Source of the DNA: Escherichia phage ECp13 | Sequence record: PP274704.1 | Strand: one strand, 5' to 3' | DNA length: 64,000 nucleotides | Notes under the pieces: model-generated | Databases searched by the model: none | What the model saw: only the letters and a program-made list of their open reading frames with translations | Told to the model about the DNA's origin: nothing | Shown: piece by piece, positions 40,162 to 43,988 of the stretch | Layout of the letters: each line of letters starts with the position of its first letter | How positions within the stretch are numbered: the first letter of the stretch is position 1 | Made by a program: the position numbers and the translations under genes

Positions 40162-40854
<693 letters not shown>

Positions 40855-40869
40855 TAATTTCACAAAGTT

Positions 40870-40899
40870 GTTTACATGCTGATGAGGTAGTGATACTAT
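40870..40899 (+). promoter_or_regulatory. early sigma70-type promoter
   Basis: GTTTAC (40870-40875), 18 bp, TACTAT (40894-40899) with TG upstream; 31 nt before the IP-like gene start. Confidence 0.6.
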
Positions 40900-40929
40900 T
40901 ATCTCATCAAAATTAATTAGGAAAATAAA

Positions 40930-41187
40930 ATGAAAACTTTCAAAGAGTTTGCTACAAAAACCACTATCACTGAATCTTCTCACGGTATGGAAGTAAAGCT
41001 TGGAATGGCTTTAGCTGAAGCTGAGCGTCTTTTCTCTCGTATTAAAGAACTTGCTGCTGCAGTCGATCCTTCATCTTTTAAAGGAGACCAAACTAAAGTT
41101 AAAGCACTTTTAGCATTATGCTCCGATGCAGGAGAAATTGCTAAAAATGGTTCTAAGATGAAGAAACGATTAGAAGATTTAAAATAA
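40930..41187 (+). CDS. internal-protein-like small protein with capsid-targeting-like N-terminus
   Basis: 85-aa ORF at the T4 ipI position; MKTFKEFATKTTITE resembles the T4 IP targeting sequence (MKTYQEFIAE) with an I-x-E gp21-type cleavage motif. Confidence 0.6.
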   Translation: MKTFKEFATKTTITESSHGMEVKLGMALAEAERLFSRIKELAAAVDPSSFKGDQTKVKALLALCSDAGEIAKNGSKMKKRLEDLK

Positions 41188-41199
41188 TTTCACAAAGTT

Positions 41200-41229
41200 G
41201 TTTACATAGGGTTTTAGTTGTGATACTAT
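41200..41229 (+). promoter_or_regulatory. early sigma70-type promoter (repeat copy of 40870-40899)
   Basis: GTTTAC, 18 bp, TACTAT; embedded in a 32-bp exact direct repeat of the copy upstream of the IP-like gene. Confidence 0.6.
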
Positions 41230-41257
41230 TACCCTATCAACTACCGAGGAGAATAAA

Positions 41258-41443
41258 ATGAAACGTTGTGAATTAATTCGAAATGTTGCTATTGCAATTT
41301 CTGCTTCCGCTTTTAGTTTTTCAATGTTTGTTGGATTTATATGCGGATTATTGACTACAGCAGAAAATGTGTTTTCACTTGTAGTAGCATTTTTAATTGG
41401 TTTAATTGCTATCGTTATGGATAAAATTTCTAAAGGTGAATAG
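41258..41443 (+). CDS. small membrane protein (2 predicted TM helices)
   Basis: 61-aa hydrophobic ORF with GAGGAG RBS. Confidence 0.55.
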   Translation: MKRCELIRNVAIAISASAFSFSMFVGFICGLLTTAENVFSLVVAFLIGLIAIVMDKISKGE

Positions 41444-41444
41444 A

Positions 41445-41825
41445 ATGTACAAAGTGTATGCGGATTATCAGGCTAATCCATCTGAAAAGCCAGGTTGTCA
41501 AATTGGATGGGCTCATGATACTTTGCTTGAAGCAGTAGATGCTGCTCAAAAATTGGGATATAAATATGTAGAGATTGTTCAACCGTCAGGAAAAGTTATT
41601 ACTCTTGAAGAGTTCAATAACATTAAACCAAACTTTTTACTTTTTGCAGGTGATAATTATTATCCTCGTGGTGGATATGCTGATTTAATAGCGAAAGCCG
41701 CTACCGAAGATGAACTCCGTGACATTATCAAAGAAAATGAAAACAAACCGATGTATGGTTCTAATCGCTTTGATTGGTGGCAAATTGTAAATGCCAATAC
41801 GCACACTATTGTTGATGAAGGTTGA
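41445..41825 (+). CDS. hypothetical protein
   Basis: 126 aa from ATG 41445 (RBS AAGGTGA 7 nt upstream), immediately after the upstream stop. Confidence 0.55.
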   Translation: MYKVYADYQANPSEKPGCQIGWAHDTLLEAVDAAQKLGYKYVEIVQPSGKVITLEEFNNIKPNFLLFAGDNYYPRGGYADLIAKAATEDELRDIIKENENKPMYGSNRFDWWQIVNANTHTIVDEG

Positions 41826-42118
41826 TAATGATTCTTTATGCGAAAGTATCATCCATTGAAAATGGATATAAATATGATCAAGAAGCAGCTAAAGCCTTGA
41901 TTGATGATTATGGCGTTTTAACATATTTTGAAGTTGAAAAGGTTTACATTGGCCGTTCATCTTCTCAAGTTAAATTAGTAAAGGAAGACCGTACATTTAA
42001 TACAGTAAATTTTGATTTCTTTATTGAAACAGAAAAAGGTCCTCTTGAATATGATATTTTCAAGAATCCTTTGGGTCTTGAATGTATTAAATATACTTAC
42101 ATTAATGCAGCGTGGTGA
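41822..42118 (+). CDS. hypothetical protein
   Basis: 98-aa ORF, ATGA overlap with upstream gene. Confidence 0.5.
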   Translation: MIMILYAKVSSIENGYKYDQEAAKALIDDYGVLTYFEVEKVYIGRSSSQVKLVKEDRTFNTVNFDFFIETEKGPLEYDIFKNPLGLECIKYTYINAAW

Positions 42119-42120
42119 AA

Positions 42121-42636
42121 ATGAATATTTGTTTAGGTACTACAATTCCGCAGGGCTACGTAATTGATGTCACTACCTGGGAAAATGATGGTGACAACTA
42201 TAAAACTAAAACACTGTTTGACGTAGAAGAGCATGAAATCTTACAATTTCAGTATCTTTTAAAGAAGTTTAAAAGCAGATATTCTAGTACTAAAATTGAG
42301 CGCTATTGTGGTAATGGTTTGTTCAGCGAGCAATCTCTTTTTATTTATGAATACTTGGTTGAAGGACTGTTCTCAGACCAGCTTTATCCAGAATTCATTA
42401 AAAAGGTCTTTCGCATAGAAGTTGATCTTGGTAATAAATCTGAAGAAGATGAAGAACGTGTATTTGACTTATTCTTTGTGAATGGTAATAAAGTGCTTGA
42501 AGGACTTATTAATATTTTAGGTAATGCTTCTGAGTATTATGATTATGATTTTTTGCGTGTAGTTGAGAGTGTTAAATACTCTTATATAGAAGAAGAAATT
42601 GTTTTGCCGACAGTTAAAATGTTTAATTTGCTTTAA
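42121..42636 (+). CDS. hypothetical protein
   Basis: 171 aa from ATG 42121 (track starts at a GTG at 42112); acidic segments. Confidence 0.5.
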   Translation: MNICLGTTIPQGYVIDVTTWENDGDNYKTKTLFDVEEHEILQFQYLLKKFKSRYSSTKIERYCGNGLFSEQSLFIYEYLVEGLFSDQLYPEFIKKVFRIEVDLGNKSEEDEERVFDLFFVNGNKVLEGLINILGNASEYYDYDFLRVVESVKYSYIEEEIVLPTVKMFNLL

Positions 42637-42720
42637 GAATTATTTGTTATTATTAACTCATATCGCACTGATTAATACCCTCTATCATCAAGGGTTCTTG
42701 TTTGAGAGCCTTTGTTAATA

Positions 42721-42781
42721 ATTTTGGTAGAGCGCCTGATTTGGGATCAGGAGGTCCAAGGTTCAAATCCTTGTATGGAGA
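42721..42781 (+). pseudogene. tRNA-Pro(UGG) 3' fragment (5' acceptor and D-arm missing)
   Basis: Intact anticodon arm (CCTGA-tttggga-TCAGG, anticodon TGG), variable loop, T-arm (CAAGG-ttcaaat-CCTTG) and 3' acceptor TATGGAG; no complementary 5' acceptor or D-stem upstream. Confidence 0.5.
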
Positions 42782-42783
42782 CT

Positions 42784-42883
42784 GGAGGCGTGGCAGAGTG
42801 GTTTAATGCACCGGTCTTGAAAACCGGCAGTCGCTCCGGCGACTCATACTAGGTCGTAGGTTCGATCCCTACTGCCTCGACCA
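42784..42883 (+). tRNA. tRNA-Ser(UGA), type II with long variable arm, CCA encoded
   Basis: Acceptor GGAGGCG, D-arm GCA-gagtggtttaa-TGC, anticodon arm CCGGT-cttgaaa-ACCGG (anticodon TGA), variable stem GTCGC/GCGAC, T-arm GTAGG-ttcgatc-CCTAC, 3' TGCCTCG-A-CCA; immediately follows the Pro fragment as in the T4 Pro-Ser pair. Confidence 0.6.
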
Positions 42884-43051
42884 AACAAGAAACCGGGTCG
42901 CTACCGGTAAGTCGTCGGACTGATGTTCCCTGGAGTATAGTTCCTCCCACAGTTTTACTGTGTTCTGGTTCTTTACTATCACAGCTGAAACGGCGCACCG
43001 AATTATCGATTCGAGGAAATATCTTTGCCGTAAGCCGAGTAGCGTTTTTGA

Positions 43052-43143
43052 CGGAACGTTCGGATATGGTCGAGATATGGCCTTTTAAAAATATTGAGTA
43101 GCGTCAACTGCTTAATAACCGGGTTCGAATCCCGGCGTTTCGT
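43052..43143 (+). ncRNA. tRNA-like element (acceptor stem plus canonical T-arm), possible stable small RNA or degenerate tRNA
   Basis: CGGAACG (43052-58) pairs with CGTTTCG (43136-42); T-arm CCGGG-ttcgaat-CCCGG; no canonical anticodon arm; lies in a 630-bp ORF-free stretch. Confidence 0.3.
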
Positions 43144-43195
43144 ACAAACACTTGCCTTAGCAGGTGGAACCCCGACAAGGTTGCCGCAAGGCTTA

Positions 43196-43222
43196 GCCCC
43201 GACCGAAAGGTTGGGGCTTTTT
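43196..43222 (+). terminator. intrinsic terminator closing the tRNA/small-RNA region
   Basis: CCCCGACC-gaaa-GGTTGGGG hairpin followed by CTTTTT. Confidence 0.65.
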
Positions 43223-43224
43223 AG

Positions 43225-43232
43225 TATAAATA
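43225..43232 (+). promoter_or_regulatory. late promoter (TATAAATA) for the IP-like gene at 43273
   Basis: TATAAATA on plus strand, 41 nt upstream of the ATG. Confidence 0.55.
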
Positions 43233-43272: not shown

Positions 43273-43746
43273 ATGAAATCATATGCTCAATTTTTAAATG
43301 AAGCGGTGTTAAATGAAGCATCTAGCACCGAAATTCAAGCCGTCGCAAAAGCAGCCATTGCAGCGGGTAAATATTCCTATAAAGATGCTTCTGACGAATC
43401 ACGATTCCAATTTGCTCGCGACATGAAAGCAGAAGGATTTACGGGAAATGCGGTTAGTATGGCCTGGAAAAGTCTAGTTGCTACTGGCGCTGCTTTTGCA
43501 AAGGCTTCGGGTAAACCTGCTCCTAAAGCAGATCCTAAAGCTGCACAAGAAAAAAATATCGTTAAAGGAATTATCGCTAAATATGAAGCTATCCTTAAAG
43601 AGCTTTTAGTAATCAAAACCGAAGGCCAAAAGTTAGCCCGTGCTTATAGTTTCAAAGATAATCCACATGTTCACTCTCTTGAGTATGTTGAAGACATTCA
43701 AAAAATTATTAAAGACCGCATTTGGTCTGCTAAACAAATCAAATAA
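43273..43746 (+). CDS. internal-protein-like protein with capsid-targeting-like N-terminus
   Basis: 157-aa ORF; MKSYAQFLNE-A resembles the 10-residue T4 IP targeting sequence ending in an L-x-E cleavage motif; late promoter upstream. Confidence 0.6.
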   Translation: MKSYAQFLNEAVLNEASSTEIQAVAKAAIAAGKYSYKDASDESRFQFARDMKAEGFTGNAVSMAWKSLVATGAAFAKASGKPAPKADPKAAQEKNIVKGIIAKYEAILKELLVIKTEGQKLARAYSFKDNPHVHSLEYVEDIQKIIKDRIWSAKQIK

Positions 43747-43755
43747 CATTCTTAA

Positions 43756-43782
43756 CCCCGACCAAAAGGTTGGGGCTTTTTG
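43756..43782 (+). terminator. intrinsic terminator (second copy of the 43196 hairpin)
   Basis: CCCCGACC-aaaa-GGTTGGGG followed by CTTTTT, 10 nt after the IP-like stop. Confidence 0.65.
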
Positions 43783-43914
43783 GTATCTAGGCCTTTCTGG
43801 ACCTCTCTAGGCATCATTTAGTTTATACCCTTTATAATATATTATCCTATCTTTTAATTGCCCCTCCCTGCCCTAGAATTCCCTAAAAATTTTTAAAAAT
43901 TTTTTCACAAAACT

Positions 43915-43944
43915 ATTTACATCCCTGTTCTTCCATGGTACTAT
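43915..43944 (+). promoter_or_regulatory. early sigma70-type promoter (conserved module TGGTACTATACAACTATCAACT)
   Basis: TTTACA at 43916-43921, 17 bp, TACTAT (43939-43944). Confidence 0.6.
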
Positions 43945-43988
43945 ACAACTATCAACTACTGATACAGAAAAACAACTTGGAGAATGAA

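Follow-up and report, generated by a model that had tools for sequence, protein, structure and literature searches.

The interval upstream of the tRNA genes in T-even phages

In phage T4 (T4T annotation), the interval between the internal protein gene ipI and tRNA-Gln is occupied by three genes, trna.4, trna.3, and trna.2, which code for a predicted membrane protein of 61 aa and for proteins of 136 and 96 aa, respectively, and the T4 map of the SegB paper agrees in placing segB elsewhere (PMC2330249). A middle promoter is situated just upstream of the T4 tRNA gene cluster (PMC2330249). The internal protein (IP) locus constitutes a documented shuffling region (PMC4122927), and PeSL cassettes have been described for T4-type phages (PMC2839356, PMC4122927).

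The window, i.e., the whole stretch of 64,000 nt analysed here, belongs to a T4-like phage (Tequatrovirus); the region considered is 99.5% identical to Shigella phage Sfk20 (Tequatrovirus pss1) and is matched by nearly 1,000 T-even-type phage records. Its local gene order is gp53, dNMP kinase (gene 1), 57A, 57B, an 85-aa internal head protein, four ORFs (41258-42636), tRNA remnants, and a 157-aa IP-like protein. An earlier note on this DNA had located the four ORFs where T4 carries segB. T4 has tRNA.4, tRNA.3, and tRNA.2 at this place and segB elsewhere, and with this placement corrected, the block turns out to be the usual tRNA.4-.3-.2 operon of T-even phages, extended by one T2-type gene, for which no special explanation is needed. 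It is ordinary for a T-even phage, and its gene content is already known, namely as a named and widely conserved accessory early operon. A replacement of segB was considered and is rejected: none of the four products contains a GIY-YIG domain (no Pfam or NCBIfam match at E<=1), and the T4 segB site is not the one occupied, the corresponding part of the tRNA cluster being deleted in the window.

Organization of the four genes

All four ORFs are located on the + strand, and the first three are orthologous to T4 Trna.4, Trna.3, and Trna.2, with 100%, 57%, and 88.5% identity, respectively (tblastn E=3e-36, 8e-39, and 7e-54). The first (41258-41443) codes for a 61-aa protein that matches phrog_1692 (E=6e-35), is predicted, as is its T4 ortholog, to be a membrane protein, and exhibits two hydrophobic segments with 19-residue Kyte-Doolittle means of up to 2.35. 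The second (41445-41825) encodes 126 aa and represents a different allele of Trna.3, the third (41828-42118) encodes 96 aa, and the fourth (42121-42636) encodes a very acidic protein of 171 aa (pI 4.5) of the orphan phage family phrog_2290, present in T2 and absent from T4. The soluble proteins of 126, 96, and 171 aa are all acidic (pI 4.5-4.8). Stop and start codons are separated by spacers of 1, 2, and 2 nt, and each of the four starts is preceded by a Shine-Dalgarno-like GGTGA or GAAGG. Coordinates, spacing, and the two hydrophobic segments of the first product thus agree with the previous description of four coupled ORFs of 61, 126, 98, and 171 aa, except that the third ORF, if read from its ATG as in the annotations of Sfk20 and T4, has 96 aa; 98 aa are obtained only with a TTG start at 41822.

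Order and place (IP gene,.4,.3,.2, tRNA-Gln) on the early strand are common to the window and T4T (T4Tp139-137; Trna.2 = UniProt P13324), and the lengths are similar (61 aa; 126 vs. 136 aa; 96 aa), whereas T4 possesses another allele of Trna.3. Concerning this gene, the comparison with T4 reveals a mosaic, with 29% identity in the N-terminal half and 85% in the C-terminal half, and the nucleotide match begins only at 41630. The allele of the window is that of Gaprivervirus VR20 (92%). The conserved C-terminal half (NFLLFAGDNYYPxGGYxDL...FDWWQIV) also matches three PHROGs of short stand-alone phage proteins.

The whole T4T genome was searched in six-frame translation by phmmer/hmmsearch with single sequences and profiles. 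The 61-, 126-, and 96-aa proteins have exactly one T4 homologue each (T4T locus L002, 4752-5683), whereas no homologue of the 171-aa protein was found in the T4T genome with either sequence or profile (best E=0.55), and no second copy elsewhere in the window. T4 orthologs of all four genes at the same position, which the earlier note had regarded as speaking against its reading, are thus clear for three of them, and the 171-aa gene is without one.

Promoters and transcription

The block had been described as starting right after a repeated early promoter, which is confirmed by a 69-nt direct repeat with promoter hexamers at 41172-41240. This PeSL-like cassette on the + strand carries TTTACA-17-TACTAT with an upstream TG, with the -35 hexamer TTTACA at 41201 and the extended -10 element TG-n-TACTAT ending at 41229, and a stem TAGGGT/ACCCTA brackets the -10 element. 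Its sister copy at 40842-40910 is 83% identical and possesses in the same place the stem GATGAG/CTCATC, such that in these two copies the sequence of the stem (6-7 bp) differs, but the pairing is kept (z = -0.7 and -2.1). A third, weaker copy at 43887-43955 lacks the stem. The arrangement resembles the PeSL cassettes and the shuffling of T-even IP loci (Arbiol 2010, Comeau 2014, Repoila 1994) in that an early promoter plus stem-loop of about 70 nt is repeated and borders small accessory ORFs, the region being hyperplastic. Unlike in PeSL shuffling, the indels of the block fall at gene junctions, in microhomologies around Shine-Dalgarno, stop, and start sequences, and not at the PeSLs.

No terminator-like site was found on the + strand between the early promoter and 43195. 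The first terminator-like hairpin 3' of the block on this strand is situated at 43195-43218, after a region similar to rnaD and rnaC, and is probably the end of the transcription unit, as judged from the sequence. Since no such site precedes it, a single message starting at the PeSL-type early promoter (41201-41229) would cover the block, and the four ORFs, with their short spacers and own Shine-Dalgarno-like sequences, would be translated in tight succession. The transcript presumably continues into the tRNA/stable-RNA unit, which also appears to have a middle promoter of its own: a MotA-box site, TGCTTTA-N12-TATTAT, is found on the + strand at 42629-42653 and shares sequence with the end of the 171-aa gene, namely its last two codons and stop. 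Eleven such middle-promoter-like sites exist in the window, vs. 2.15 expected by chance. The match fits the published T4 middle promoter, such that the 171-aa cassette sits exactly between Trna.2 and the tRNA promoter.

The tRNA cluster remnant and the stable RNAs

The block had also been placed in a hyperplastic region beside a truncated tRNA cluster, and this holds: a 5'-truncated tRNA-Pro and a tRNA-Ser/Arg chimera remain at 42710-42884 on the + strand (Rfam 30.3 and 49.4 bits), and ARAGORN called zero tRNAs in the whole window. Compared to Sfk20, the cluster region (42710-42886) exhibits three deletions, one of 264 bp comprising Gln, Leu, Gly, and 15 nt at the 5' end of Pro, one of 402 bp that runs from the 3' end of Ser through the Thr, Met, Tyr, and Asn genes into the 5' part of Arg, and one of 364 bp comprising a 116-aa ORF. 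This arrangement is contiguous in none of the best-matching records listed from a search of 50,697, each of which needs at least three pieces. In two of the three deletions, both breakpoints lie inside tRNA genes, which suggests either recombination between tRNA genes or an assembly collapse. The following part (42887-43227) aligns at about 90% to T4 rnaD and rnaC (stable RNA species 2 and 1) and is closed by the strong hairpin at 43195-43218, which is repeated at 43756-43775.

Neighbouring anti-CBASS and internal head protein genes

Gene 57B/acb1 (anti-CBASS) is located at 40403-40860 (Pfam Acb1, E=3e-52). Relative to T4T, T2, and Sfk20, it has a deletion of 1 nt in a GGGCCC run near 40764, after which the frame shifts at about residue 121, resulting in 133 instead of 152 aa; the normal C-terminus is readable in another frame. 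The frameshift may reflect a real pseudogene or a homopolymer sequencing error.

T-even internal head proteins begin with an N-terminal capsid-targeting sequence of the MKT(Y/F)xEF type, which ends with (L/I)-x-E, the prohead protease site. Starts resembling these T4 sequences, including the (I/L)-x-E site, are exhibited by the 85-aa protein (40930-41187; MKTFKEFATKTTITE, i.e., MKTFKEF...ITE; phrog_3499) and by the 157-aa protein (43273-43746; MKSYAQFLNEAVLNE, i.e., MKSYAQF...LNE). The 85-aa protein has no match in the ipI region of T4 and is 98.8% identical to an "internal head protein" of T2, and it therefore represents an alternative IP rather than a homologue of IPI. A membership of the four ORFs in the IP family was rejected on inspection, their starts (MKRCELIRN, MYKVYADY, MILYAKV, and MNICLGT) lacking a capsid-targeting sequence.

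Searches for function and the preferred explanation

The earlier note had recognized no motif in any of the four products, and the searches bear this out: Pfam and NCBIfam as well as sequence and fold searches against the PDB were all negative. Scans with Pfam, NCBIfam, and PHROGs matched only PHROGs of unknown function, PDB profile searches with the 171-, 126-, and 96-aa proteins returned nothing below E=0.03, and the matches in BFVD are exclusively uncharacterised phage proteins. In a literature search, no characterisation of tRNA.3, tRNA.4, or the 171-aa family was found. Experimental hints can now be tied to the 96-aa gene of the window. In a pull-down, T4 Trna.2 belonged to the two T4 proteins that wild-type DRT1 enriched relative to an RT-dead control, an observation which the authors left there (PMC13275509), and it is classified as "Semi-Fit" in a T4 CRISPRi-ART screen, i.e., its fold change exceeded the cut-off, whereas statistical significance was not reached. 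Since T4 is still sensitive to DRT1, Trna.2 is not an effective inhibitor of it.

The explanation we favour, with moderate confidence, is that the block is the T-even early operon upstream of the tRNA genes, composed of tRNA.4, tRNA.3, tRNA.2, and the T2-type 171-aa cassette, whose products act independently as early host-interaction proteins. The identity, order, and position of the genes as well as the purifying selection and the single-gene losses and gains described below are observations. Concerning the products, the three acidic soluble proteins and the one membrane hairpin would be small, non-essential proteins made early, which most likely bind host proteins and thereby modulate host takeover or blunt host defences; we infer this by analogy, because the neighbours in the region, Acb1/57B and the internal head proteins, do so. 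The likeness to the T-even counter-defence proteins Acb1/57B and IPI* consists in being early or injected, small, non-essential, variable among relatives, and situated within 1 kb, whereas sequence and fold similarity to the four ORFs as well as a capsid-targeting sequence in the latter are lacking. Indirect evidence for an anti-defence role comes from this neighbourhood, the acidity of the soluble proteins, and the enrichment of T4 Trna.2 with DRT1. The extreme conservation of Trna.4, with at least 99% identity in 428 of the 790 records that contain it, is unusual for a gene engaged in an arms race and counts against the host-interaction reading.

The 171-aa protein family

The 171-aa protein matches phrog_2290 over its full length (residues 1-170, E=1e-66). 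An exhaustive HMM search yielded 992 clusters (50% identity) at E<=1e-3, all of them single-domain proteins of about 120-190 aa. Its motifs are W20-E21-N22-D23-(G)-D25 (W-E-N-D-(G/A)-D in the family), G64-N65, and R146-V147-x-E149; among 62 diverse members, E21, N22, and D23 are invariant, and at least 90% also have G12, W20, D25, F50, G64, N65, R146, and V147. A Pfam scan of these 62 members yielded no shared family, and the predicted model is confident, but without a fold match. Such a strictly invariant polar motif is better suited to catalysis or ligand binding than to a simple decoy that binds proteins, and it also counts against the host-interaction reading. A likeness to calcium sensors was rejected, the ENDGD loop matching a calmodulin-based calcium sensor only at a non-significant E=0.05 and misfitting the DxDxDG motif.

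The most viable alternative to independent host-interaction proteins, possible although rather unlikely, concerns this protein and maybe the whole block: it would be tRNA-linked, i.e., have tRNA or translation as its target, either as an enzyme or by binding a ligand (tRNA processing, repair, or protection, or the countering of host tRNA-targeting nucleases), which would be why the gene is kept beside tRNA genes. In 28 of 57 IMG/VR loci of the family, tRNA genes are found within 8 kb on the same strand, and in 13 of the 57 a tRNA lies within about 1 kb, including non-T4-like contigs and jumbo phages; in a Klebsiella phage, the family gene is even located inside the tRNA array. Yet, many of the loci are related by descent and the counts cover this family alone, about half of the 57 are devoid of tRNA genes within 8 kb, and in large phages small early accessory genes accumulate quite generally in tRNA regions, such that proximity may mean nothing. 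Among 141 neighbouring ORFs at non-T4-like loci there are three CCA-adding enzymes, two RNA ligases, one Thg1, and one class I aminoacyl-tRNA synthetase, which agrees with a tRNA-linked role, as does the persistence of invariant E, N, D, D, K, N, R, and E residues across about 25% identity; the model of the 171-aa protein, however, is without similarity to any RNA-acting fold. Likewise, the gene ends in this phage inside the middle-promoter-like site of the tRNA unit, but T4 grows with tRNAs and without the 171-aa gene, and in the window the gene persists with not a single tRNA gene left intact.

In its more specific form, a family of about 1,000 clusters would possess an acidic W-E-N-D-G-D / G-N / R-V-x-E site that binds metal, nucleotide, or RNA and would act in tRNA metabolism or against tRNA-targeting host defences. 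We consider this proposal doubtful; if true, such a role would explain the recurrent placement of the family inside the tRNA arrays of unrelated T4-like and jumbo phages. This large "WENDGD" family, which is found in large phages and has no Pfam entry and no detectable fold relative, is the only lead of wider interest at the locus.

No conserved partner gene was found beside the 171-aa homologues at 80 loci, where synteny is only lineage-specific. In several phages, ORFs downstream of the homologues (L013 9881-10324 and related T4-like loci; L029 11400-11747) are NADAR/YbiA-like as judged by eye or belong to the YspA/SLOG family, the latter matched by Pfam in two of the neighbouring ORFs scanned. 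NAPRTase and ADP-ribosylglycohydrolase are also found near 171-aa homologues, and these NAD/ADP-ribose-related genes may share the accessory region.

Distribution of the four genes among phages

Translated searches of 50,697 phage records found homologues of the 61-, 126-, 96-, and 171-aa proteins in 790, 762, 804, and 575 records, respectively; the identity falls to 27-40% in phages of Klebsiella, Aeromonas, Proteus, and Erwinia and in jumbo phages of Salmonella. T-even-type copies (at least 60% identical) of the 171-aa gene exist in about 255 records according to identity bands, vs. about 655 for Trna.2. Besides the window, all four genes occur in Sfk20 and in the IMG/VR contig 3300010279_000005. 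Sfk20 exhibits the same arrangement with 98-99% protein identity; the contig has the four genes in the same order, with 99% identity in the 171-aa protein, 94% in Trna.2, and the T4-type allele of Trna.3 (61%). Both differ from the window in possessing an intact cluster of 10 tRNAs, and Sfk20 also lacks the 1-nt deletion in 57B.

Other phages contain subsets, namely the 61-, 126-, and 96-aa genes in T4, the 61-, 96-, and 171-aa genes in T2, and the 61-, 126-, and 171-aa genes in VR20. Between the IP genes and tRNA-Gln, T2 (PV958097, CDS0038-0040) has the three genes at 100%, 93.5%, and 86% identity and shares the 85-aa internal head protein with the window, whereas Trna.3 is missing and the stop of the 61-aa gene runs directly into the start of Trna.2, with an AAGGT microhomology at this junction. 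As in T2, the junction in T4 is gene-precise and situated at short similar sequences around Shine-Dalgarno, stop, and start: directly after Trna.2 comes ...ATGCTTTAAGAATTATTTG, the retained 3' end of the 171-aa gene, which forms a MotA box identical to that of the window. The 171-aa gene is a common, T2-type gene apparently lost by T4, and the T4 arrangement looks like a deletion that had to preserve the tRNA promoter.

That single genes come and go in this way argues for a stack of independent cassettes and not for one machine. A single functional module, i.e., a membrane-anchored complex with the 61-aa hairpin as the tether of the three soluble proteins, is highly unlikely: although the spacers of 1-2 nt, the single promoter, and the conserved order wherever the genes co-occur would suit it, it is largely refuted by the patterns of presence and absence, with T4, T2, and VR20 each viable without a different member. 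Furthermore, hundreds of phages contain a member of the 171-aa family in whose vicinity relatives of the other three genes are not detectable, the levels of conservation diverge widely (100% vs. 57% to T4), and the members are without profile similarity to each other, the profile-profile comparison among them giving no paralogy. The four products would thus be independent cassettes rather than subunits. Concerning the accessory module proposed in the earlier note, the reading as an accessory block that is early, non-core, and part of the hyperplastic IP/tRNA region is upheld, whereas a functional unit is doubtful. Homology and structure comparisons revealed no domain, and the different subsets carried by T4-, T2-, VR20-, and Sfk20-type phages constitute a natural "knock-out series" for phenotyping four conserved ORFans.

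Coding status

The four ORFs are, by their sequences, genes and not chance ORFs, because all four are under purifying selection, with pairwise omega (dN/dS vs. homologues) of 0.03-0.5, and each is found in 575-804 phage records. That they are a transcribed leader of the tRNA cluster or decaying remnants in a hyperplastic region, as the absence of known domains, the damage to the adjacent acb1 and tRNA genes, and the deletion mutants showing the tRNA region to be non-essential in laboratory T4 might suggest, is already refuted by this selection and by the detection of the Trna.2 protein by mass spectrometry in T4 infection, and homologues kept across genera as well as confident AF2 models also oppose it. 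Omega amounts to 0.2-0.38 in the 61-aa gene and, even at a dS of 1.2-1.7, to 0.04 in the 126-aa gene when compared to the Gaprivervirus copies.
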